From the IMG/VR virus record IMGVR_UViG_3300026512_000003, positions 64,001 to 128,000 of that record: 64,000 nucleotides of DNA; one strand, 5' to 3'. The notes beneath the pieces are model-generated. The model worked only from the letters and a program-made list of their open reading frames with translations. It was not told the DNA's origin and did no database searches. Below, piece after piece: positions 1,924-36,909 of this stretch. Numbering within the stretch: the stretch's first letter is position 1; each line of letters starts with the position of its first letter. The position numbers and the translations under genes are program-made. This DNA comes from a virus.

Positions 1924-4900
1924 TTATCCCCTAGAAACTACAACTTTTTGTGTTGATGTTTTACTATTGATTTCTTTCAGCACAGCTAGTATCTGACCCC
2001 ATATATCTGTTAATGATGAGGTGCTTTTATCTTCTGATGAACCTACTTTTGAAGTTTTGGACATATCTGAAACCTTAGGACTAGAAACACCTACATTTAA
2101 ATCAAGTTTCGATTGGAAATCCTGAAGACTTTCTTTGTCTACGGCACCAGTTCCTCCATTGTGTCGAGCTTCTCTTTCTAAGGTATGTCGAATTTCTAAA
2201 TTTCTAGCATATTTTACAGCTTCTGTTTCAAAAGATTTTTTAGTCTCAACTTTTTTTATTTCTATATTTGCACTAGAATCTTTAGTGATATCGTAACTAT
2301 GTCTTCTGTGTTCTGTATGAGATACTATTGAATCATCAACATGAGTTAACCTTTTATTATTGTTTTCAGACTTCTTAGAGGAAACGCTATGAGAAACATC
2401 TATCTTAGTTGTTTTGGCTTCTGTTCTGAATACTTTAAGGCTAGAGAGTTCTATATTTTCATCTCTAACTTTAACAGACTCTTTTTTTCCTGTTAAATGA
2501 AGATAAATACTCGCTGTATTTTGTTCAATTTTTGCTAAATGATTTTCGATAGGACTTCCTCCACCATTTAGATTCTGAGAAAGCATACCTAGAGTTCCTC
2601 CAGTATTTCCAGACATATCAAACATCTGTCTAGCTATAGCCGAACCACTCTTCTTGTCATCCCCTGATAAAGCGTCTCTAGCTTCTAATAAGTTATTGTC
2701 GAAAGCTGTTCTATCCTCTGTCTTTTTAGCTTCAGCAACTTTTACATCTTTCATGATGTCTAAATTTGTTTTAGCATAATAATTACCATCTTTCCCTTTT
2801 TTTAATAATCCCATGATGGACTCTGCCATCTCTAGCTTGTTTTTAGAACCAAATGTTTCTCCAAAAGCTTTAGATGTTGCATCAGCTAGGTTAGTACCAG
2901 CTGCAATTTTAGAGGATTTTGTTGCAAATTCAGACAAGTTATCAACAATATGAGAATTTCCTGCAAGAGACATTACAGCACTTTCTTCTTTTTCTGATAA
3001 GTTAAATTTTTTAAGAATTTTCATTGAATGTATTTGGTCTGTAACAACAGATCTGTCTGTACCTCTAGCTTTGTAATCGTCAGATATTGTTTGAAGGGCC
3101 TCTGTCATAGAGTCTTTCTTTTTAGATCCACTAAATATAGTTGTTGCTCTAGATAGATCTTGAGATCCTAAGATTTCTTTTGACAATTTCCCCATTTGTC
3201 CTGTATGTTCTAAACTAAAAACCTCTGATGGGGAATATTGCCCTATAGCGGATGCTTCTGCGTTCTTCGTCAGTAAATTGCCTGCAGCTTTTTGAAAAGT
3301 AACAGCTTCATCTTTCGAGAAGCCTTTTTTTAGCAAACTATCATAAAATTCACTTTCTTTTAGGTCCTTTGCAAACTTCTGTCTTTCTTCTACAGTAACC
3401 TTTCCTTTATAATCATAACCCATTGATGATAAAACAGAATGCATACTGTATCCAGAATGCTTAATACTTTCAGCTCCTCTCAAATTTAGTTTTTCCTGAG
3501 CCTGATTGTATTCTCCGTAAGCTTTCTCTTTTATTCCTTTTGTGATACCAATTAAGCTATTTGCCCCTAATTTGCTTCTTGTGTCGGAGTCTATAGTATC
3601 ATAAATTTCTTTTCCATACTTAACAGTTGCTTTTTCTGTGCCGTATTGCTCAGACAGTTCATCAAAGCGATCTTGTTTAAAAAGATTTGCACCTATTATT
3701 TTTGAAACAACATTTTGTTTCTTTTTATAAGAAAGTTCTTGTAGTTCTGCATGAGATTTTGTCATACTCTTGACATTGCTACCTTGTTTCAATTTGTTTA
3801 AATCATACATACTCCAACCAGAAGCACTTGTTTCAAGTTCAGAGGCACCTTTTTTTGCTAGGTAATCAAAAGATGAGAAAAATTTATTGTCCTCATTCAT
3901 AATGTCTTTATTGAATTTCTCAGAAGATGAAATATTTAAAGAAGTGTCGACAAGTTTCTTAACTTGAGTAAGACTTTTTTTACCTTCAAGATCTTCTACT
4001 GATTGTAGTTCTTTTGCATGTATATCATTTAGGTTGTCGTTTTGATATTTATAACCATGTGCATATCTTATCATTGTGGAAGTTCTATTGCCATTGTATA
4101 TTTGCCATTTACCATGAGCTGCATTGTTTATGTAGTTAAAATCCTTGTCTCTAACATCGTCTTTTGTCCATCCAAGACCTCTACCAATAGCATGTAAACT
4201 ATCAAAAGAGTTAAGAAAAGTCCCAGCGTTATCTACTCCTGCTCCAACAGCAGAAAATATTCCATTTATATCGTGCTTCTGTTTTCCAACTGCATCTCTA
4301 GCTCTCTCGAGTGCAAACCCCTCGTCTGTACTACGAAATAAATTTCTTGTAGTATCTAAAAGAGTACCCTCATTTTTTTTCCTTACAGCTGCATATTTTA
4401 TAGCATTATCCATGTCTTCTGAGGTTACATCTCTTTTCTTTTCAAATCTATTTGTTCCAGAAAGAATAAACCAATCTAACCCTTGAGCTGTAGCAAGTTT
4501 TGCTTTTTCAATTCTATTTGCAAAAGTATTAGTTTTCCTAGAGTGACTTTCTTGTTCAATTTTCCTTGCGGCTTCATTTTGGTCTCTGTAAACAGAAATC
4601 CCTTTATTATACTCATCTGCGTAGTCTGAAACACCTTGATTATACTGTACATGGTTAATTGCACGGAATGTGGAATCTTCTTGTAGCCTAAAAACTTTTT
4701 CTTGTTGTTTTGCTAAAAACTCTGTATTTTTCTCATTTACATTAATTCTTGCGCTAGATGCTGAATTTGTCAGGGTTCTAGTGTCGCCTTGATATATAGC
4801 AGTCCATTCTGTTAATCCAAGTGCTCCAGAATTATGTAAGCTATCCGTTTTTTTCTGTAGACTTCCACCAGCTTCTACATATTCAGAAAGTCTTGACATG

Positions 4901-6114
4901 GCTTCGTTATCTTTTTTGTTTCGTTGTTTCTTTGTAAGTTTTCCCCATTTTTCATCACCACCAACAGATTCTATAGCATCTGCATGTGATAAGACTTCTA
5001 AAGCACTGACAGAAAGCACATTTTTTTCTAAAAAGCTATATCTTCCTTTCTCCCCTGAAGTAAAAGAAGCTGCCATATTAAAAGCATCCTGTTGTGCTTG
5101 TTTATGATCATCTTTATTCATAAAATGGCTACCTGCTCCAGAAGTAAATCCTCTATCCCCAAACATAGCAAGTTTCATGTATGTAGATGCTTTCATAACC
5201 CCAGCTTGTTCTTGGCTTTGACCCCTCTGAAGATTATGTTCCATATAATCTTTTTCTTTAACTCCTAAGGCTCGAGCAGTAACACCAAGCGCTCTTGCCG
5301 CTTCCATACCTTTTCTGTCACTAAGCCCTATACCATTAAGTTTTCTCATAGTGTCCATTATGACACCTATGTTAGAATCTCCCATTATTTCAACAAGGCT
5401 TTTTGCTGTTTGGGTCATTTCTTTCAGTTTACTTTTGATTCCAGAAGTATTAGTTGTTCCCTTAACTGCTCCTGTCCTAATACCTTCATCGAGTATTCTT
5501 CCTATTTGTCCCATACTCATAGATTGGTCCTGCATAAACATGTCTTCTATCCCAGAATTAACTTCTTTTGCTTGTTTCATGTTGTATCCGAAACTTCCAT
5601 AAGAAGATTTTGCATTTCCTAATCTCATAAGAGAGGAATGGGTATTTGCTATTCTATTTCCTCTCCTTGCTATTGATTCACCTACAAACCCTCCAATGGT
5701 ATCTCCAGCTACTGTTCCGAGTATCATGCCTGGAAGTCCACCAAGCTTAGAACCAACAAAGCCACCAAGTATACTACCTGACTCATCTATTAATCCCGCT
5801 TCAATAGATGTTTTAGCCCTAAAGCTAGAGTTTTCCATATGAGCTCTATAAAAACCTCCTTGAGATGCTTGTGGTGTAGGAACAATTCCCATAGTTTGCT
5901 TAAATGAATCCATGAAGTGATTTCTATATAACCCAGAATAAGGACCGTTAAGAGGACTTTGTTGTTGCCCACCAAAGACACTTTTCATTGTAGGAAGCGT
6001 GTCGTAAGACATGTAGCCTTGTGCTCCACTGGTCATCATTCCTGGTGTAGCAGTATATCCTTGCCATGGGTTCATATACATAGCACTAGTGGTTTGTTGC
6101 ATTAATGGGTCCAA
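1924..6114 (-). CDS. Tape-measure-like / ejected virion protein, 1396 aa
   Basis: Long, helical-looking, K/S/G/A-rich; N-terminal glycine zipper GSILGGFVGSKLGGLPGMILGTVAG; TTG start after AAGGAG; structural context. Confidence 0.5.
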   Translation of the reverse strand: MDPLMQQTTSAMYMNPWQGYTATPGMMTSGAQGYMSYDTLPTMKSVFGGQQQSPLNGPYSGLYRNHFMDSFKQTMGIVPTPQASQGGFYRAHMENSSFRAKTSIEAGLIDESGSILGGFVGSKLGGLPGMILGTVAGDTIGGFVGESIARRGNRIANTHSSLMRLGNAKSSYGSFGYNMKQAKEVNSGIEDMFMQDQSMSMGQIGRILDEGIRTGAVKGTTNTSGIKSKLKEMTQTAKSLVEIMGDSNIGVIMDTMRKLNGIGLSDRKGMEAARALGVTARALGVKEKDYMEHNLQRGQSQEQAGVMKASTYMKLAMFGDRGFTSGAGSHFMNKDDHKQAQQDAFNMAASFTSGEKGRYSFLEKNVLSVSALEVLSHADAIESVGGDEKWGKLTKKQRNKKDNEAMSRLSEYVEAGGSLQKKTDSLHNSGALGLTEWTAIYQGDTRTLTNSASSARINVNEKNTEFLAKQQEKVFRLQEDSTFRAINHVQYNQGVSDYADEYNKGISVYRDQNEAARKIEQESHSRKTNTFANRIEKAKLATAQGLDWFILSGTNRFEKKRDVTSEDMDNAIKYAAVRKKNEGTLLDTTRNLFRSTDEGFALERARDAVGKQKHDINGIFSAVGAGVDNAGTFLNSFDSLHAIGRGLGWTKDDVRDKDFNYINNAAHGKWQIYNGNRTSTMIRYAHGYKYQNDNLNDIHAKELQSVEDLEGKKSLTQVKKLVDTSLNISSSEKFNKDIMNEDNKFFSSFDYLAKKGASELETSASGWSMYDLNKLKQGSNVKSMTKSHAELQELSYKKKQNVVSKIIGANLFKQDRFDELSEQYGTEKATVKYGKEIYDTIDSDTRSKLGANSLIGITKGIKEKAYGEYNQAQEKLNLRGAESIKHSGYSMHSVLSSMGYDYKGKVTVEERQKFAKDLKESEFYDSLLKKGFSKDEAVTFQKAAGNLLTKNAEASAIGQYSPSEVFSLEHTGQMGKLSKEILGSQDLSRATTIFSGSKKKDSMTEALQTISDDYKARGTDRSVVTDQIHSMKILKKFNLSEKEESAVMSLAGNSHIVDNLSEFATKSSKIAAGTNLADATSKAFGETFGSKNKLEMAESIMGLLKKGKDGNYYAKTNLDIMKDVKVAEAKKTEDRTAFDNNLLEARDALSGDDKKSGSAIARQMFDMSGNTGGTLGMLSQNLNGGGSPIENHLAKIEQNTASIYLHLTGKKESVKVRDENIELSSLKVFRTEAKTTKIDVSHSVSSKKSENNNKRLTHVDDSIVSHTEHRRHSYDITKDSSANIEIKKVETKKSFETEAVKYARNLEIRHTLEREARHNGGTGAVDKESLQDFQSKLDLNVGVSSPKVSDMSKTSKVGSSEDKSTSSLTDIWGQILAVLKEINSKTSTQKVVVSRG

Positions 6115-8075: not shown

Positions 8076-9086
8076 TTACATTATCCCTAACATCTTGTCA
8101 TAATTATCTACCTTGCCTGCCACAGAAGCACCTGTTATCCCAGCACCTCCATAAAACATAGCTCTATCTAGACCATTTAATTTTTTTTTAGGGCCTTTTT
8201 TGAAAAGAGACAAAGTGGAATGTCCTATATCCTGTGCTTTGTTTATAGATTTTATTGTACCTTTTGTTGCTGAAAGTGCCCCTTTTCCAAGAGCTCCCAC
8301 TCCAGTCAACCCCCAATTTAATATTTTGGAAGTAAGCATAGCGATAGCTTCTTTGTCTGAACCTTCTTTTAATAGCATATCTAACTGATGAACAGAAGAG
8401 AGGGTGTCGACCATATTTGAATGCTTTTCCCCAGAGAATTCATCTGTAGCAACTTTCGTAAGAACTTGCTCATTCATATTTAATCTGTTCACTATTAAAG
8501 GAAGAGAGTCCACTAGGTCATGTTCCATTGCAACTTTTACTAAGCCTCTAACCTCTTCTTCTGAATTAAGACTGTTTGCTATTTTGTCACAAGCAAAATC
8601 AAGAGTTTCTTTTGCTTTAAATATTAAGCTATTCTCTCTTTTTTTGTTTGTCTCAGCCTGTATGTCTTGAGCTGAAGCTATCTTCGTCATAAGAAATTTG
8701 TCGTCAGCTTCTTTTAAGAGTGTCGTGCTTGAAGATGTTTTTGCTTTAAATCTTTTAGAAGACTGTAATACGAACATATCATCAGTAATAATAAATTCAG
8801 GACGAACACCACTCCCTACATCATCAGAGGCCGTCTTAGTTAAAACAGACGCTGTCTTCTGTATGGAGCTATTAGCAGCACTGTCTGTTGACGACGGAGT
8901 TATAACATCAAAAGAAATATCACCATCTGTGGATTTATCAGCAATTCTACTTAAAAAGAATTGCTTATTTACCTCTCTAGCTAAACTAACCTGATGTGTT
9001 TCATCTAAGGCTGCGGCTTCTTTGCTAAAATCAGTATACGGATCCTCAGAGGACGCTATTTGTATTGCCAATTGTTTAATGTCCAT
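8076..9086 (-). CDS. KxA-motif precursor protein with cationic glycine-rich C-terminal cargo (putative internal head/ejection protein)
   Basis: Nine K-x-A motifs in residues 1-247, then a basic amphipathic Gly-rich tail. Confidence 0.6.
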   Translation of the reverse strand: MDIKQLAIQIASSEDPYTDFSKEAAALDETHQVSLAREVNKQFFLSRIADKSTDGDISFDVITPSSTDSAANSSIQKTASVLTKTASDDVGSGVRPEFIITDDMFVLQSSKRFKAKTSSSTTLLKEADDKFLMTKIASAQDIQAETNKKRENSLIFKAKETLDFACDKIANSLNSEEEVRGLVKVAMEHDLVDSLPLIVNRLNMNEQVLTKVATDEFSGEKHSNMVDTLSSVHQLDMLLKEGSDKEAIAMLTSKILNWGLTGVGALGKGALSATKGTIKSINKAQDIGHSTLSLFKKGPKKKLNGLDRAMFYGGAGITGASVAGKVDNYDKMLGIM

Positions 9087-9101
9087 TCTCTCATCCTTGT
9101 T

Positions 9102-9144
9102 GTGTATTCTAGTGTTGCCACCGAAGTGACAACTAAGAATACAC
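9102..9144 (-). terminator. Strong intergenic hairpin with cUUCGg tetraloop (terminator or processing/stability element)
   Basis: Minus strand GTGTATTCT-TAG-TTGTCAC TTCG GTGGCAAC-ACT-AGAATACAC right after a stop codon; no U-tract. Confidence 0.55.
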
Positions 9145-10202
9145 TAGTTGCGCGCTCTATTGTATCCGTATGCAGCTCCAGCTCCAGCTCCAGCCAAAGC
9201 AGTTCCTGCTAATCCAGCAGCAGCTAAGTATTTGTTCTTTTTGCTAAGATTTCTTAGAGACCCTCTAAGAGATCCTCCTAATTCTTTTGCAGCTTCCGTC
9301 TTACCTTTACTGAGCCCTTCTGTATTACCTATACTACGCCAATGTTTGATAGTATCTTTTCTAGCAGCAGCGGCTGGACTAGTTTTTGCCCTCTTCGCTG
9401 CTTTTTGTTGAAGCTTGTATGCTTCCCTTTGTTCTGGTGTCATTCTGCGTTGAAAGTTTGTCTCACCATTCAGCTTTCGAGCTTTTTGAACTCTAGGAGT
9501 AACTGGTTTCTTTTTCCCAGGAACACTATACTCAGTATTTTTATAAAGCTCACGATTTGCGGCTATTCTTGCTTCTGTATTAGACATATCATTCAAGACA
9601 CCAGCTTCTTTGTCATACGCAATCATCGCATCTTCAGGGTGAACAACTTCTAAATCCATAAGGAAATCTTGAACTTGAGCAAGTTTGTCCTCCATATCAG
9701 CATCAAGATCACTATACTCACTCGCAATTTTTTCACCTTCTTCAGGAGACCCAATATTGTTTAGATCAGTAATTAAAGTAATTGCTGAAACAGGATCAAT
9801 GCCGTTTTCTTCTAAAAACGCATGAGCTTCTGCAACTTTATCTAAGTCTCTGTCAAGGGCAATCTCTTCCATTTGTCCATTTAGAGCTTCAGCCACTTTT
9901 TCATAGTCTTCAACTTCTAAGCCATAAGAAGCTAATTCAGCCATCGCATCTTCATCAGAATAGTTATCACTCGCCATCTTTTCAAAAACATTCACTGCAC
10001 CTAGCAGTGCACTTGGCTCAATTTCTTCTGCAATCTTAATAAGGTTCTCACCTGTGAAAAGATTTCCTTGTGTAAGGTTGTGATGAACGATTAAATCATT
10101 CACAGTCACTCCGCTGTCTTCAGCTACTTTTACCAGTCCGTCAAAATCAGCTGCGGCATCTGAAGCCATAGCAAAACTTTCAACTCTATCATAAAATGTC
10201 AT
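9144..10202 (-). CDS. KxA-motif scaffold-like precursor: acidic N-terminal 200 aa plus basic C-terminal cargo with terminal hydrophobic Gly/Ala helix
   Basis: All 8 lysines in residues 1-200 are in K-x-A; C-terminus LAAAGLAGTALAGAGAGAAYGY. Confidence 0.65.
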   Translation of the reverse strand: MTFYDRVESFAMASDAAADFDGLVKVAEDSGVTVNDLIVHHNLTQGNLFTGENLIKIAEEIEPSALLGAVNVFEKMASDNYSDEDAMAELASYGLEVEDYEKVAEALNGQMEEIALDRDLDKVAEAHAFLEENGIDPVSAITLITDLNNIGSPEEGEKIASEYSDLDADMEDKLAQVQDFLMDLEVVHPEDAMIAYDKEAGVLNDMSNTEARIAANRELYKNTEYSVPGKKKPVTPRVQKARKLNGETNFQRRMTPEQREAYKLQQKAAKRAKTSPAAAARKDTIKHWRSIGNTEGLSKGKTEAAKELGGSLRGSLRNLSKKNKYLAAAGLAGTALAGAGAGAAYGYNRARN

Positions 10203-10342: not shown

Positions 10343-11176
10343 CTACGCTTCTCTTAAGTAAGAAACACGACAAGTTTTGCCGTCATAATCACCAGAAGTT
10401 GCAGGGACAAGCTTCCATTCAGTAGCAGAATCTCCAGCAGTAACATCAACAACATCAAATGTTCCATCATCTACTTCAACTTCAGCAGTTAACCCTACAA
10501 TAGAACCTAGCACATCATGAGCAACAGTAAAGTCGTCACCAGTAATAGCAAGACCAGTCTCTACTTCCATTACAGTAACAGAACCTTTATTGTCAATAAG
10601 GCTTTTTAATGTCTTTCCTTGCTCAGCAGACAATGGAGCTTCTGTTCCACCAGTTGTAAGATCATCAACAATTGAAGATTTTAAAACTAGAGTATCTGTA
10701 TCAATGTCTTGTCCAAGAATTTGAAGTAATTTCCAACCGTCACCTTCTTTGTACATATATGCAGCTGATTGACCTTCAAAGTCACCTAAATCAGTGTCTC
10801 CTGTAGTATCAAGAACATATGCAATCATTGTTTCAAAAGGATCAGAAATTTCATTTCTTGCATCAATTGTATCAACCATGATTGAATCATCTACAGATGC
10901 AACATAAGATTTAATTTTATCAACAGACCAAGTAGTGTCAGAACCATCAGTAGCAGTATCATCAATCATACCATCAGTAGTCTGCTCTACAGCATCAAGT
11001 CTCGATGTAATATCATCAGAAAATGTTTTAAAAGCAGCAGTAGCCACAACAGTAGTTGCATTGTTAGCATCTAAGACATCACTCAAAGTTGCTTTGATTG
11101 CAGCTTTTTCTAATTTTAATCCGAGCGCAGACTCTAAGCCACTTACGGCCCCTATTCTTCTTCTATGTAAACTCAT
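10343..11176 (-). CDS. Acidic virion structural protein (fibre/decoration-like)
   Basis: IDDTATDGSDTTWSVDKIK and IVDDLTTGGTEAPLSAEQGKTLK resemble phage tail-fibre repeat motifs; strong RBS, own promoter and hairpin. Confidence 0.6.
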   Translation of the reverse strand: MSLHRRRIGAVSGLESALGLKLEKAAIKATLSDVLDANNATTVVATAAFKTFSDDITSRLDAVEQTTDGMIDDTATDGSDTTWSVDKIKSYVASVDDSIMVDTIDARNEISDPFETMIAYVLDTTGDTDLGDFEGQSAAYMYKEGDGWKLLQILGQDIDTDTLVLKSSIVDDLTTGGTEAPLSAEQGKTLKSLIDNKGSVTVMEVETGLAITGDDFTVAHDVLGSIVGLTAEVEVDDGTFDVVDVTAGDSATEWKLVPATSGDYDGKTCRVSYLREA

Positions 11177-14221: not shown

Positions 14222-14896
14222 TTAAACTTCGGCTAAAACATGCTTATTCAGATCAAAAGTTTGTTGCTCTAAATCAGATGTTTTTTTATATAGATTTCTA
14301 TCTAATGCAGGAAAAGGAAGAGCGCTTTTAAAAATATTAGCTGCTTCTTGGTCCTGTATTCGCATATTATATATTGTGGATGTTTTTGTTCCAGGTCTCA
14401 TAGTGTACCATTTTCCAACTTTAAAGTCACAAGTAAAAACAAAACCCTCGCTGTTATTAATCACTATTTTATCTTTAGATGAAAGAACATAAATAAAGAG
14501 TCTTGTTTTTTTTGGGAAAACCTCAGCTATCCCTTTTGCTTTTGCTTGCTCTTTAGCATAACCTCCTCTTTCAAGTTTTGCTCCGACCGAAGGAAGCTCA
14601 TACACATCTGTTAAATCTTCTTTTGCTAAAATCTTACCTCTTTTTACAGATATTTCATATGTAGAAATAAAAACACCTATGTTGATGTTATCTGCTTTTT
14701 TTGGTGAGGTTAGAAAAAACATTCTTGCATTTTTGTCATACCTCAATCCTGCAATATGTTTAGATTTGTCTTTGTATTCCACATTTCTAACATCCATAAA
14801 ACCAATTATACTTTTTCCTCTAAGTGCTGTTGCTATTCCAGAAGCTTTATCTTTGTAGTACTTAGACAAGCTTGCATTTATTACTATATTCGCCAT
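14222..14896 (-). CDS. Basic hypothetical protein
   Basis: 224-aa ORF, translationally coupled. Confidence 0.55.
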   Translation of the reverse strand: MANIVINASLSKYYKDKASGIATALRGKSIIGFMDVRNVEYKDKSKHIAGLRYDKNARMFFLTSPKKADNINIGVFISTYEISVKRGKILAKEDLTDVYELPSVGAKLERGGYAKEQAKAKGIAEVFPKKTRLFIYVLSSKDKIVINNSEGFVFTCDFKVGKWYTMRPGTKTSTIYNMRIQDQEAANIFKSALPFPALDRNLYKKTSDLEQQTFDLNKHVLAEV

Positions 14897-19700: not shown

Positions 19701-21491
19701 TTAGTCTTCCAAATTCTCTAATCTATCATAAATGTCATCAAAGTTGTTTTTCTGACTATTTGTTAGTGCTACTATTTTATCTCTAACGACCTCTTGACCT
19801 TCTATGAGAGCCTCTACACTATCCATAATATCAGTAATTAATGCTGATGCTTTTGTTTGCATCACAGAAACATCATTATCTCTATATATAACTTCTAAAG
19901 GAACAAGTAACGGATCTGTTTCATCAGTAATTTCTACAAAATCAATTTCAAAAGCAGAACAGTTTCTAATATATAATGCAATACGACAGTCACTGTAAGC
20001 TGCTTCGGATAAGTTCATATGTGATCCTTGCATTTTTTCAGAATAACCACCAAATAATTTTCTACAAGAAGTAACTTTACCTATTGGACTAAAACTAACA
20101 GTCATCTCATATTTTTCCTCTCCATTTGTAATAAGAGAACCTTCTAATGGAATATGTCCACTAGTCATCCCTGTTCCTTTTATGTCGTATATGAAATCTT
20201 GCCCACTTTTGTCTTTTGAAAGGATTGTTCCTTTCATTACTTCGGGAATCGCTTCAAAAAGTGTATCATGATTATTACTGCCTACAATAATTGGCCAAGA
20301 ATGATCAGAAATATCACTAAATGTTTGCATTGACTCAGGAAGTGATCCTTTTTGGATACCAAACATTATATTGAATCCACCTCTCTCTTGAAGCATTGGG
20401 TAGTTTTCAAAAGCATCATTCCAACTGTTTGCTGTTTTTTTACTACCAGATGTACCTGTCAACACATCATTAACACTACTAGGAACATTACCTATTTCAA
20501 CAAAACTAAGATTGTTTACAATCCCGATAGACCAACCATTTCCAGCTACCACATCTAAGAAAAAATTTCCATTCTCCCCAGTAATAGTATTAGTTCCATC
20601 CACATCTTTGCCCCAGGTAATAATCTCACCATTCTCTGTGATAGCACTTATTATTTGTTCTCCACAAGATACTTTTTTCGCAGTAATATTAGGCTTGTCA
20701 TCAACTTGCCCAAACTCATTATCTCCAAAAATATCAAAAGTACCATCTGTATGTAGAAGTGCAAGATTGTTGCCTTGCCCTGTAATTTGCACTGCTTTAT
20801 TGTCATCCCCTATATCTAAACCAATCACTGATACATTTCCTGAGTTAAAAATAGCTGCATAGAAATCTTCACCTGCACAAATATCAACTATCATATTCTC
20901 ATCTACCGTAGTCCATTCTGTTGGGAGAGCCAAATCTCCATCTCTATCGGAACCATAAAAAGTAACTGTGCCATTTTGTCTGAGTGCAATAGTAAAACCT
21001 GCGCCAGTTGCAATTTGAGAAATAGTTTCTAAGTCTTCAAGGTCTAGCTCAGCATTATCATTTGAACCTTGAAATCCAAATAGAGAACCTGATTTCACAA
21101 TAGTGTGAGTAGAAGAAGTGTCTACCCCATAAAAAGTTCTTCTTTGATATGAGTCTACATTCTCTCGGCGATCTTCTTTTTGACACCCATCAGACAAATC
21201 ATTTCCTGACCAGAGGTTATCACTATTGGGAGCCTTAGTAAGGAAAGCAAAATTGTCTCCAAATGAACTTCCAAAAGTACCAGAACGAACAAAAGGAGAA
21301 AAAGGCTGTGCTTTAAACACAATTCTTAATGTTTTGTTTGCTGCTGATAAGTCGAAAGATTCTCGAGAAACAATACCAATCAAATAATCATCTGTTTCTT
21401 CTCTTTCTATGAATAAAGAGCCATCTGTTCTTGCTTGCACTGCATTGCTATTTGAAACAAAGTCAGAACTAGTTAATACGGTAGTCGCCAT
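19701..21491 (-). CDS. RCC1/BLIP-II repeat beta-propeller protein with C-terminal coiled coil (putative fibre/receptor-binding)
   Basis: Repeats QIATGAGFTIALRQNGTVTFYG, DICAGEDFYAAIFNSGNV, KVSCGEQIISAITENGEIITWG. Confidence 0.75.
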   Translation of the reverse strand: MATTVLTSSDFVSNSNAVQARTDGSLFIEREETDDYLIGIVSRESFDLSAANKTLRIVFKAQPFSPFVRSGTFGSSFGDNFAFLTKAPNSDNLWSGNDLSDGCQKEDRRENVDSYQRRTFYGVDTSSTHTIVKSGSLFGFQGSNDNAELDLEDLETISQIATGAGFTIALRQNGTVTFYGSDRDGDLALPTEWTTVDENMIVDICAGEDFYAAIFNSGNVSVIGLDIGDDNKAVQITGQGNNLALLHTDGTFDIFGDNEFGQVDDKPNITAKKVSCGEQIISAITENGEIITWGKDVDGTNTITGENGNFFLDVVAGNGWSIGIVNNLSFVEIGNVPSSVNDVLTGTSGSKKTANSWNDAFENYPMLQERGGFNIMFGIQKGSLPESMQTFSDISDHSWPIIVGSNNHDTLFEAIPEVMKGTILSKDKSGQDFIYDIKGTGMTSGHIPLEGSLITNGEEKYEMTVSFSPIGKVTSCRKLFGGYSEKMQGSHMNLSEAAYSDCRIALYIRNCSAFEIDFVEITDETDPLLVPLEVIYRDNDVSVMQTKASALITDIMDSVEALIEGQEVVRDKIVALTNSQKNNFDDIYDRLENLED

Positions 21492-21493
21492 AA

Positions 21494-21862
21494 TTATGCT
21501 CCTATCTCATGTCTAAAACGATTATCTAGTTGCTCAAAAATAGCATCTCCTAAAGTAGTTGCAATTGTAGATATGTAAGCTAAATCAGAATTACCAGCTT
21601 CTTCAGCAATCTTAATGATGTCTTCAGGTGTAGTAGCCTGTTCCATTTGAGAAGCAACTTTTTCTAGAGTTTCGCTTAAATCAAGTGGCGCACCTATCTC
21701 TTGTTCTATTTGAGTCGCAACATCTAGTGTTTCCTCAGCTTCTTTTACTAAAGCAGTTCCTTGTGCAAGTGAGCTTAAGCTAAGATCTTTAGCACTCGCT
21801 GTTTTTTGTAACGACTGTTCTTCGCTTACTGATTGAATTAGATTACCTATATTTACTTCCAT
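21494..21862 (-). CDS. Small acidic KxA-motif protein (scaffold/core-like)
   Basis: LQKTA, LVKEA, LEKVA, IIKIA: 4 of 5 lysines. Confidence 0.6.
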   Translation of the reverse strand: MEVNIGNLIQSVSEEQSLQKTASAKDLSLSSLAQGTALVKEAEETLDVATQIEQEIGAPLDLSETLEKVASQMEQATTPEDIIKIAEEAGNSDLAYISTIATTLGDAIFEQLDNRFRHEIGA

Positions 21863-22409: not shown

Positions 22410-22865
22410 TTACTCTTTTATATGATACTTATCAGACAAAGCTTTTTTGTATGCTTTTGCCCTATCTGTATCTTTGCCTACAAGGTTTTCTCTTGCTCCT
22501 TGCTGTTTATTATATTCACTTCGCTGTTTTTTTAAAGATAACACTCCTGAAGCAAGAGCTCCAAGACCTCCAATAATCCCTTTTTTTCTTGTTGCAGAAA
22601 AAATTTTTCCAGAGTCTTTGTTAATTAAAGTATTACCCATTAGGTAAGCAAGCGATCCACCTGTAGCAATATCTTTTGTCGTCTCTTCTGAAGAAGAGGG
22701 AGCTGAACGCTTACCTTTTACATCTGCTAATAATTCGAGTTGTGCAAGTCTCTTATTTTCTAAAGAACCCTGGTCATCTGCTATTTTGTCCCCAGTTACA
22801 GGATCAAAATTTTCAAAAGCAAGTAGTCCTATTTTTTTATTTTTATTTTTCTTATATTTCTGCAT
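22410..22865 (-). CDS. Basic glycine-zipper protein (putative ejection protein)
   Basis: IATGGSLAYLMG and GIIGGLGALASGVL segments; one GDKIA site. Confidence 0.5.
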   Translation of the reverse strand: MQKYKKNKNKKIGLLAFENFDPVTGDKIADDQGSLENKRLAQLELLADVKGKRSAPSSSEETTKDIATGGSLAYLMGNTLINKDSGKIFSATRKKGIIGGLGALASGVLSLKKQRSEYNKQQGARENLVGKDTDRAKAYKKALSDKYHIKE

Positions 22866-22866
22866 C

Positions 22867-23472
22867 TTATATTTCCCTAATCGAAGTGTCGTATGACTTT
22901 TGTGCTGAACCTAGCAAGCCATAAGTATTTTGAAAAGCGTTATTGCTTCTCCCTCCTCTTTGTTGAATCTCTGCAAGGTTTTTGCTAGTTGCTATATCAA
23001 CTCCACCAACAGCATGTGCTGTTGTCAAAAAAGTTGTAGCAAGTTCAGGATCTTTAGCTGCTCTAGGAGCGATAGTGTGAGCACTGTTCAGCCAATTTCT
23101 TAGTTTGCTATCTTTTACAGTTCTCAATGAAGGATTTGTTTGCTTTGCATATGCAATTAAGCCTGGTACTTTTTTCCTAAATTTCATATCATTATATTCA
23201 TCTGTCAAAGCTTCTGCACCAAGCCCAACTCCTGTTAGGGCTACAGCCATTGGTACAGCTTCAGCTAAAGCTGTTCCAATATGACCAAAACTAAAAGAAG
23301 CTTCTTTTTGTATTTCGTCTGAAATTGTAGGACTGTCTTTAAGCATTTTCAGCAAAGTATTCGCTTGTGCAATTTTTACAAAAGTTGTTTCAGAATCTTC
23401 TGAGAATCCATTTTTTTCAACTTCTTCCGCTAATTTTATTAATATCTTTTCCATATTATTAATGTCCTTCAT
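22867..23472 (-). CDS. KxA-motif precursor with hydrophobic helix after last KEA
   Basis: LIKLA, FVKIA, IQKEA then SFSFGHIGTALAEAVPMAVALTGVGLGA. Confidence 0.6.
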   Translation of the reverse strand: MKDINNMEKILIKLAEEVEKNGFSEDSETTFVKIAQANTLLKMLKDSPTISDEIQKEASFSFGHIGTALAEAVPMAVALTGVGLGAEALTDEYNDMKFRKKVPGLIAYAKQTNPSLRTVKDSKLRNWLNSAHTIAPRAAKDPELATTFLTTAHAVGGVDIATSKNLAEIQQRGGRSNNAFQNTYGLLGSAQKSYDTSIREI

Positions 23473-23785
23473 CTGTACTTATTGTTTTTTCTGTTATCTC
23501 TAATAAACGGTTGTGTTCATTTATTAGTAATAATAGCTCTTTTATTCTTTCTTTTCTCTGAATACACTTAGCTGATATTTTTTCAAGATCGTTTTTTGAA
23601 ATCACAAATTTGTTAATATCCATCTTTTTTATTGTGATATTAATATCGGTAAGTGCATCTGATTCCGATACATAAATTTTCTCTCCAACAGGAATTAATG
23701 ATTGCTGATGAACCACAGTACTACATCCAGCGAATAACAGACTAAAGAGAAAGAGTAATGCTTTGTTCTTTTTGCGCATGTTCAA
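23459..23785 (-). CDS. Outer-membrane spanin-like lipoprotein (o-spanin)
   Basis: Signal peptide with lipobox LFAG-C; overlaps 3' end of upstream TM/coiled-coil gene. Confidence 0.65.
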   Translation of the reverse strand: MNMRKKNKALLFLFSLLFAGCSTVVHQQSLIPVGEKIYVSESDALTDINITIKKMDINKFVISKNDLEKISAKCIQRKERIKELLLLINEHNRLLEITEKTISTDEGH

Positions 23786-24041
23786 TCTCCTGTATTGCTT
23801 TTTTAATTTCTTTACTCGACGAGATTTTATTTTGAAGTATTTTTTTTGCAGTTTCTCTATGTAATCCAGCTCTTTTTTCTTGAATGAGCATTTTCTTTGT
23901 AGAGGCTTTCACATTTTCTTTCAAAATATTATTTTCTTGAGACAAAGCGTCAATCTTTGACTGTTTAATGTTACTACTTATTTTAAAATAAGCGGTAACT
24001 ATACTTAAAACAGCCATAATGGCAATTGTTATATCAGACAT
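23742..24041 (-). CDS. Inner-membrane spanin-like protein (i-spanin)
   Basis: Single N-terminal TM helix plus coiled coil, between holin and lipoprotein. Confidence 0.6.
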   Translation of the reverse strand: MSDITIAIMAVLSIVTAYFKISSNIKQSKIDALSQENNILKENVKASTKKMLIQEKRAGLHRETAKKILQNKISSSKEIKKAIQEIEHAQKEQSITLSL

Positions 24042-24285
24042 CTTCAGTTACTTTTTCTTGAAGAGATGTTGTAGTTACTGTTCGCAAATAAGCACCTATT
24101 CCTGCGATAAGTATCATAAATACACCAAAACTTCCTTGAGAACCAAATAAAGATTCTATTTTTCCTGAATACAATTGAATTGCTCCTACTAATGCAAGTC
24201 CAATATTAAACAACATTGTTTTACTTTTCACAACTATCTTTGTAGTCTTTACTAATTTTTTCTTTGCTTTATTAAAAAAGTTCAT
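24034..24285 (-). CDS. Putative holin
   Basis: 83 aa, basic N-terminus, two TM helices, KSKT..FN and LRTVTT motifs. Confidence 0.6.
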   Translation of the reverse strand: MNFFNKAKKKLVKTTKIVVKSKTMLFNIGLALVGAIQLYSGKIESLFGSQGSFGVFMILIAGIGAYLRTVTTTSLQEKVTEDV

Positions 24286-36507: not shown

Positions 36508-36909
36508 CTAATTGTTTTTTTTATTTACTAGGCTACCAAGATTGTAATTAATTCCAGAAGAAAGTAAACCTTGTGCTGCTCCAGCAACAGTATTGGGGAC
36601 TGCTTTTTTAGTTCCATTTTGAAGAATACCTTTTTCTAATCCACCTATGGCACCACCAGCTAGACTACCATAAAAAGTATCCTTTAGCGTGTCGACACCA
36701 GTGTCTTTAGAAATAGCCCCACTTACAGCAGTAGAACCACCAGCTAGTCCAGATAAGCCATGTTTATATTTGTGTCCCTGTATTAGTCCAAGCATATTTT
36801 GCGACACTTGACCTTTTCTTCCAAAAGATGCTTGAACAAACCCTTGTTCAGCACCTCGCAAAAAAGCATTTTTGTGCTGTTTTTTTTTAGATTCTTTCTT
36901 GTGAGACAC
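36508..36909 (-). CDS. Basic glycine-zipper protein (putative ejection/membrane-active)
   Basis: GLSGLAGG, GSLAGGAIGGL, AGAAQGLLSSG; K-rich termini; GTG start after AGGAG. Confidence 0.55.
   Translation of the reverse strand: MSHKKESKKKQHKNAFLRGAEQGFVQASFGRKGQVSQNMLGLIQGHKYKHGLSGLAGGSTAVSGAISKDTGVDTLKDTFYGSLAGGAIGGLEKGILQNGTKKAVPNTVAGAAQGLLSSGINYNLGSLVNKKNN

Follow-up and report, generated by a model that had tools for sequence, protein, structure and literature searches.

Two neighboring minus-strand genes in a 64,000-bp window of an uncultured viral genome (positions 64,001 to 128,000 of IMG/VR virus record IMGVR_UViG_3300026512_000003) code for proteins of 352 aa (9144-10202) and 336 aa (8076-9086) that have acidic N-terminal parts with many copies of a K-x-A motif, and basic, Gly/Ala-rich C-terminal tails. 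Judged from their sequences, these are probably scaffold-like precursors of the prohead interior, which would be shredded by the prohead protease to leave basic internal head proteins; we put the probability of this reading at roughly 60%. The source genome is that of a large tailed phage, assembled as a single 165,427-bp contig with 33% G+C (positions in the whole contig are given below as genome coordinates). It codes for GroEL and a C-terminal fragment of the RNA polymerase beta' subunit, and its large terminase and capsid protein genes lie just upstream of the window. The nearest cultured relatives, as judged by the capsid protein, protease, and polymerase, are Vibrio phages D69, D148, and D181 and Salmonella phage Arash, at ∼29 to 44% identity; uncultured relatives in IMG/VR are far nearer, with capsid proteins that are 82 to 87% identical.

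The motif is best written [LFMIY]-x-K-x-A-[S/E/A/G], and the residue following the Ala is most often Ser. The genome background is 0.25 copies per 100 aa, against which five open reading frames (ORFs) have 1.5 to 3.3 per 100 aa, a 6- to 13-fold enrichment. Counted together with its leading hydrophobic residue (phi-x-K-x-A), the motif occurs 6 times in the 352-aa protein versus 0.99 in composition-preserving shuffles (P = 4e-4), 8 times versus 0.91 in the 336-aa protein (P < 2e-4), and 3 times versus 0.58 in a third, 201-aa protein (P = 0.018). The studied proteins are only 31 to 44% identical between phages with 82 to 87% identical capsid proteins, and family members share 20 to 45% identity with the window proteins, yet the motif Lys and Ala are among the few invariant columns, and motif positions are unchanged in homologues of just 25 to 45% identity. 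Column identity of motif Lys and Ala versus other Lys and Ala residues is 82% versus 31% in the 352-aa family, 45% versus 24% in the 336-aa family, and 1.0 versus 0.5 in a third comparison. Arash (53% G+C) has an equal background density and four proteins with ∼3 copies per 100 aa, and D181 is alike.

The capsid protein has one copy of the motif, at residues 26 to 28, in 8 of 8 capsid sequences compared, including those of Arash and D181 at 29% identity, and scaffold-like ORFs of 100, 122, and 324 aa also bear it. It is further found at the very start of small, strongly basic proteins that begin M-x(1-4)-K-x-A; because only 5 to 8 residues precede the motif in these mini-leaders, a cut would have to fall at or just after it. 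These properties support the view that K-x-A behaves like a head-protease processing signal. Glu-directed sites of the T4 type (L/I-x-E) or phiKZ type (S/A/G-x-E) were considered and rejected, as the invariant positions are Lys and Ala, and A-x-E fits a minority of the sites. A strict K-E-A rule was also rejected, since the middle residue varies in the 336-aa family. Glu is nonetheless invariant at this position in the 352-aa family and in the capsid protein, and within this genome it is commoner at final sites (7/10) than at internal sites (5/32; Fisher P = 0.002).

The likely enzyme is a 417-aa protein that matches PHROG 18299 (head maturation protease; E = 3e-13) and has tblastn homologues annotated as capsid or head maturation proteases. 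Its own K-x-A copies lie before the catalytic domain (residues 29 to 31), directly after it (212 to 214 and 223 to 225), and in the divergent C-terminal part (316 to 318 and 339 to 341). Foldseek comparison of the protease model places herpesvirus assemblins on top (probability 0.9 to 0.97, E about 1e-2), and the top two of 48,161 chains in a VIA-wide search are the varicella-zoster virus protease (Z 6.2) and T4 gp21 (Z 6.1). A phmmer search of PDB sequences and a first single-sequence scan with the protease returned nothing. Overall, the PHROG, homologue, Foldseek, and VIA-wide results are supportive of, though not conclusive for, an assemblin-fold protease. A homologue, gp19 of Bacillus phage G (L012, 11841-12743), contains C-terminal K-V-A-S and K-I-A-S copies, but K-x-A is absent from the capsid protein of phage G; the code may be older than its use on the capsid protein. 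A separate feature of the protease is an invariant C-x-x-C ... C-x-H cluster within residues 150 to 167 (C150, C153, C165, and H167; four homologues), which resembles a small zinc-binding insert and would be unusual in assemblin-fold proteases.

In both precursors the composition switches right after the last motif, as the original prediction held, with net charge passing from -39 to +21 in the 352-aa protein and from -13 to +9 in the 336-aa protein, and the switch recurs in homologues. Charge profiles along the chains agree, with the cumulative minimum at residue 210 of the 352-aa protein, ten residues past the last K-E-A, and at residue 244 of the 336-aa protein. The same prediction had the switch fall at K-E-A each time, and all three proteins do have K-E-A as their final motif; this is invariant in the 352-aa family, but the Glu is not kept in the 336-aa family. 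These observations support the final motif copy as the putative point at which an acidic leader gives way to a basic Gly/Ala-rich product.

The 352-aa family has seven members, and the switch at the last motif is also seen in 6/6 homologues of the window protein. The motif copies in its acidic module are spaced at 27/31/19/27/20/36/15/25 residues, and the lengths of the fragments between motifs are kept in the family. Three homologues (P0009, P0010, and P0012) are tandem polyproteins, organized as an acidic module, K-E-A, a basic Gly/Ala unit, K-[EQ]-A-S, a second acidic module, K-E-A, and a second basic unit, whereas the relative on contig L006 consists of the acidic module alone (212 aa, net -35) without a tail. 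The C-terminal uncharged Gly/Ala run is longer than in shuffles in 6/7 members (median P = 0.007) and forms a segment of 20 to 23 residues with basic flanks; its best 19-residue Kyte-Doolittle mean (KD19) is 1.41 in the 352-aa protein.

The 336-aa family comprises 29 representatives in a hidden Markov model search of 1.84 billion representatives, which matched nothing beyond the family itself. In 13 of 22 aligned sequences, among them the window protein, its charge minimum falls exactly on the acidic residue ahead of the final K-x-A; the middle residue of that final motif is V, I, L, K, A, or E. Residues 1 to 65 are the best conserved. An AlphaFold2 model built from 22 sequences has confident helices at residues 1 to 50 and 120 to 250 (predicted local distance difference test [pLDDT] 80 to 90) and a tail below 40. 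No structure is predictable for the tail. That the acidic region, and not the supposed cargo, is the best conserved and confidently folded part suggests a scaffold or targeting role of its own. A fold search of BFVD with the 336-aa model found nothing at E < 0.1.

The 201-aa protein was described originally as a third example of the switch, and this is borne out in part: its K-E-A at residues 56 to 58 is followed by an uncharged segment, but the charge contrast across the motif is weak (-4/+4). Its relation to a virion protein of Arash is discussed below. The principal features are listed in the table.

Table. Coordinates of precursor proteins, protease, and related products (window positions unless marked otherwise)
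Feature	Coordinates	Strand	Remarks
Acidic module, residues 1-200 of 352-aa ORF	9603..10202	-	Eight K-x-A; 10 K+R vs 49 D+E
Final D-K-E-A of 352-aa ORF (K-E-A residues 198-200)	9603..9611	-	Invariant in 7/7 family members; charge switch point
Basic tail, residues 201-352 of 352-aa ORF	9144..9602	-	32 K+R vs 11 D+E
23-residue uncharged Gly/Ala segment, residues 325-347 of 352-aa ORF	9162-9230	-	Followed by basic C-terminus
Acidic, mostly helical region, residues 1-247 of 336-aa ORF	8346..9086	-	Nine K-x-A
Final K-E-A of 336-aa ORF, residues 245-247	8346..8354	-	Family keeps K and A only; next residue hydrophobic or Gly
Basic Gly/Ala-rich tail, residues 248-336 (89 aa) of 336-aa ORF	8076..8345	-	Poorly conserved
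201-aa ORF	22867..23472	-	58-residue leader with three K-x-A; conserved ∼110-aa domain at end; homologue of Arash gp221 and D181 0276
Last K-E-A of 201-aa ORF, residues 56-58	23299-23307	-	Third K-x-A of leader
Uncharged segment, residues 64-86 of 201-aa ORF	23215-23283	-	KD19 = 1.56
Prohead (capsid maturation) protease, 417 aa	28021..29274	-	Five K-x-A, all invariant in four homologues
122-aa acidic protein	21494..21862	-	Net -16; four K-x-A; no basic tail; scaffold/core-like substrate
151-aa basic protein	22410..22865	-	Net +12; Gly-rich uncharged segment; adjoins 201-aa ORF; free-standing cargo-type product
133-aa basic Gly-rich protein	36508..36909	-	Net +12; K-N-A at residues 13-15; top glycine-zipper density in genome
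M-x(1-4)-K-x-A basic proteins	genome 19010-19282; genome 157163-157423; L005 11420-11680; D181 0279		Leaders of 5-8 residues

Database searches place these proteins in no established family. Searches of Pfam and PHROGs assigned none to the 352-, 336-, and 201-aa proteins or their tails even at E ≤ 5, and tblastn against 50,697 phage records gave no match for the three proteins at E ≤ 0.1. The ESM Atlas held no usable look-alike, its models being poor (pLDDT about 0.53), and for the 201-aa protein a word-based search matched only the protein itself and a scan of viral contigs was without matches. The tails diverge rapidly, keeping only their composition. No homology between the 352-aa tail and free-standing basic ORFs was found by BLASTP, and the cargo class is accordingly defined by composition and leader, not by descent; this genome codes for at least eight such small Gly/Ala-rich products, with net charges of +9 to +29.

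Counterparts in Arash and D181 illustrate how the modules may be rearranged. An acidic multi-motif gene directly follows the protease gene in both, and is itself followed by a basic Gly-rich gene (Arash gp223/gp224 and D181 0278/0279). A ∼30-residue helix-turn unit bounded by the motif is common to the 352-aa protein, Arash gp223, and D181 0278, with weak significance. The 336-aa family is collinear with Arash gp220, including the final K-x-A and the Phe that follows it (hhalign E = 7e-4, probability 26%), and the 201-aa ORF matches Arash gp221 (E = 9e-5). The acidic and basic modules are thus one chain in the 352-aa protein and adjacent genes in Arash and D181, and the acidic module stands alone in L006. 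The probable counterparts lie between a large structural protein of the head module (gp218 and 0273; function not established) and the capsid gene. Arash gp220, gp221, gp223, gp224, gp225, and gp242 were detected in purified virions with 203 to 550 spectra, gp220, gp221, gp223, and gp224 having 222 to 355 (PMC10585845, Table 2); the Arash supplement is a gene table, so this virion evidence is at the level of whole proteins and concerns relatives only (PMC10585845).

In the mechanism favored here, the acidic helical N-terminal parts would act as scaffold or core proteins that bring the precursors into the assembling head, and the 8 to 9 motif copies per precursor would be sites recognized by the assemblin-fold maturation protease that the phage itself encodes. 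Cutting would follow assembly and take place at the motifs, probably just after the Ala as in herpesvirus assemblins, breaking the acidic part into peptides of 15 to 36 residues and freeing basic Gly/Ala-rich polypeptides of 152 and 89 residues. Once freed, the tails would remain alongside the packaged DNA as internal proteins of the head, and they would probably exit with it during infection; the same scheme would apply to the 201-aa protein, whose leader is short (58 residues). We infer cleavage, the scissile bond, head location, retention, and ejection, and treat any action of the tails on membranes or DNA as speculation. Proteins of the T4 gp22 scaffold/core type are acidic, helical, and multiply cut, and the precursors resemble them in being acidic and helical with 8 to 9 sites; in this genome they are not positioned by the protease and capsid genes, although Arash gp223 and D181 0278, to which the link is weak, are.

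Several observations weigh against this mechanism. The 352- and 336-aa genes adjoin a tape-measure-like gene outside the head module, and the similarities that tie them to Arash gp220 and gp223 are weak, with probabilities of 26% and 5%, respectively. The Arash virion preparation listed 116 proteins, so that contamination is possible, and the very high coverage of its multi-motif proteins, if reliable, would mean that leader peptides are still in the preparation (PMC10585845). The model of the protease is of low quality (pLDDT 52.6), its fold matches fall short of proving homology, and hhalign found no relation to T4 gp21. In addition, several K-x-A motifs fall within confident helices of the 336-aa model.

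This last point is what would be expected if K-x-A were instead a structural or binding repeat, such as a helix cap or a docking site for the capsid or protease, the proteins staying intact with the basic tail anchoring a scaffold-like protein to DNA or membrane. The recurrence of the helix-turn unit in three phages and the high Arash coverage are also in keeping with intact chains. However, such a repeat does not explain the single copy at the capsid protein N-terminus, the copies on either side of the protease catalytic domain, or the M-x-K-x-A mini-leaders on unrelated basic proteins, and helical scaffolds like T4 gp22 are known to be cut at many sites; it is thus an unlikely account of the motif. 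Still less likely is a place for the 352- and 336-aa proteins in the tail or tape-measure apparatus, for instance as chaperones or channel parts that assemble together with the tape measure. Here the gene order (277 aa, 352 aa, 336 aa, 413 aa, 247 aa, tape-measure-like, and GroES) is suggestive, being kept in three related contigs, but the motif is common to the capsid protein, protease, and scaffold-like proteins, the probable Arash and D181 counterparts sit between the head-module gene gp218/0273 and the capsid gene, and in L006 the two genes are ∼2.4 kb downstream of the protease gene, three ORFs away.

The remaining alternatives concern the fate of the tails if precursor processing occurs as proposed. 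The original prediction was that the released basic glycine-zipper peptides are membrane active, forming a channel or depolarizing or disrupting the host membrane at ejection, with the acidic leader keeping them harmless as in prepro-antimicrobial peptides. The tails are indeed cationic and Gly/Ala-rich, the 352-aa family retains its uncharged C-terminal segment with basic flanks, similar Gly-rich segments are present in the adjacent tape-measure-like protein, and charges are in rough balance in the 336-aa protein (-13/+9). The amphipathic, antimicrobial-peptide-like character claimed for the 336-aa tail was not borne out: its maximal hydrophobic moment is 0.51 versus 0.40 ± 0.07 in shuffles (P = 0.10) and that of its first 18 residues is 0.28, and tail moments in general are not above those of composition-matched shuffles (P = 0.10 to 0.21; family medians 0.11 to 0.13). 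The second Gly zipper fares no better, as small-xxx-small periodicity is not above shuffles (median P 0.26 in the 336-aa family and 0.33 in the 352-aa family), and Pfam yielded no match to a glycine-zipper or holin family even with a threshold of E ≤ 5. The best KD19 values of the tails are 0.7 to 1.7, mostly below transmembrane level; the 336-aa family spans this same range, and its uncharged run is not above shuffles. Acidic neutralization is not required either, since equally basic products of the same cargo type are free-standing with a 5- to 8-residue K-x-A leader or without any acidic leader, and the L006 acidic module occurs without a tail. A membrane role is therefore doubtful. A DNA-condensing, charge-neutralizing role like that of T4 IPI-III or adenovirus VII/mu, with no membrane activity and with the Gly/Ala segments as flexible linkers or self-association patches, is a possible alternative, though less likely than not. 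It fits the strongly basic character shared by the small Gly/Ala-rich products of this genome, the low predicted order and rapid evolution of tails conserved only in composition, and the need to pack a 165-kb genome, but leaves the conserved uncharged segment and aromatic/basic end of the 352-aa family unexplained, and no DNA-binding domain was found in Pfam/PHROGs-type searches of the proteins and tails. The most ambitious picture is of a widespread clade of 140- to 190-kb phages, cultured Arash and the Vibrio phages included, that use a herpesvirus-like Lys-x-Ala code cut before Ser, in which acidic scaffold fusions and polyproteins load and release fast-evolving basic Gly-rich peptides that, once ejected, act on the host envelope (by channel formation or depolarization) or on host DNA, a capsid-borne arsenal of prepro-peptides; this seems improbable at present.

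Other genes with related features are scattered through the genome. A 790-aa protein encoded beyond the window (genome 157436-159808, plus strand; window coordinates 93436-95808) has eight phi-x-K-x-A copies in two clusters (P < 2e-4 versus shuffles), a long Gln-rich acidic stretch, and weak similarity to Arash virion protein gp218; a basic ORF of 86 aa, beginning M-D-T-V-K-E-A, lies ahead of its gene. Three small, very basic Gly/Ala-rich proteins (+29, +20, and +9) are encoded at genome 9216-9884, 11214-11783, and 19010-19282, far from the 352- and 336-aa genes; two have K-x-A leaders, and one ends like the 352-aa protein, with a Gly/Ala run, an aromatic residue, and a basic end. In two relatives, an 82- to 86-aa basic gene is inserted between the 352- and 336-aa ORFs.

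The surrounding genes are also of note. The 1,396-aa tape-measure-like protein (1924-6114, minus) has an N-terminal Gly-rich hydrophobic region and 13 glycine-zipper patterns, and it weakly resembles Arash gp4, the second most abundant virion protein by spectra. Proteins of 277 aa (10343-11176, minus) and 224 aa (14222-14896, minus) have 51% and 63 to 65% identity to relatives, compared with 23 to 33% for their neighbors; neither was assigned to a family, and both are probably core components of the tail or neck. In the structural block, a 596-aa protein (19701-21491, minus) has RCC1-like repeats of the beta-propeller kind (Pfam RCC1_2, E = 2.5e-13). The space between the 201-aa ORF and the RNA polymerase fragment is occupied by three small overlapping ORFs (23459-24285, minus). 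Their products are 83, 99, and 108 aa long and have, respectively, a hydrophobic core, an N-terminal membrane helix, and a lipoprotein-type signal that terminates in Cys; the trio resembles a holin/i-spanin/o-spanin cassette, a possible sign of a Gram-negative host.

If the cuts are confirmed, the protease would represent a new specificity class of phage head-maturation enzymes, directed to Lys-x-Ala and nearer to the Ala-Ser cleavage of herpesviruses than to the Glu rule of T4 and phiKZ, and the mature virion proteome of a poorly annotated phage clade would become predictable from sequence alone. The fusion and fission of acidic modules with basic products would show that packaged cargo is exchanged at protease sites, which bears on the evolution of internal and ejected proteins, and the leaders could serve to target foreign proteins into capsids, as the T4 capsid targeting sequence (CTS) did. 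The cultured relatives Arash and D181 make the precursor idea directly testable.

The closest functional parallels are in T4, with its CTS-bearing internal proteins (IPI-III and Alt), core proteins gp22, gp67, and gp68, and protease gp21. There too, proteins are taken into the core of the prohead, where the head protease trims them at a short motif that the capsid protein also bears; the acidic scaffold is degraded to small peptides, and the basic internal proteins remain with the DNA, to be injected. The T4 motif, however, is L/I-x-E, cut after Glu, with leaders of 10 to 20 residues, unlike phi-x-K-x-A with leaders of 5 to 247 residues and up to 8 to 9 sites; here the scaffold-like module and basic product are fused in one chain, and there is no detectable sequence similarity to gp21. 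The ejection and inner-body proteins of SPN3US and phiKZ, which are cut by gp245 and gp175, respectively, are similar in that the mature head protein is C-terminal. SPN3US is an established case of long N-terminal propeptides that carry several protease motifs, and this counts for the precursor reading; the protease of this type also cuts itself after its catalytic domain (PMC5694885, PMC10052503). Their motif is A/S/G-x-E, the mature parts are large folded proteins and not short basic Gly/Ala-rich tails, and tandem acidic/basic polyproteins are not reported there.

Herpesvirus assemblins are the best structural matches of the phage protease and share an Ala, most often followed by Ser, as the motif core. 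Assemblins cut (V/L/I)-x-Ala-Ser between the Ala and Ser. The phage motif demands a Lys two positions ahead of the Ala and a hydrophobic residue two positions ahead of that Lys; each substrate has many sites, and the equivalent scissile bond is a presumed one. Adenovirus pVI, pVII, and pre-mu are likewise cleaved within the capsid to free basic DNA-bound peptides and, for protein VI, a membrane-lytic peptide, but the protease is an unrelated cysteine enzyme with another motif in a eukaryotic virus, and the likeness is one of analogy only. Prepro-antimicrobial peptides such as defensins share an acidic leader ahead of a cationic product freed by proteolysis, but here amphipathicity is at chance level, cargo also occurs free-standing without an acidic leader, and the leader is the conserved folded part. 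What is new relative to the T4 and SPN3US/phiKZ schemes is the motif, the joining of scaffold-like modules to basic ones, and the family of Gly/Ala-rich basic products.

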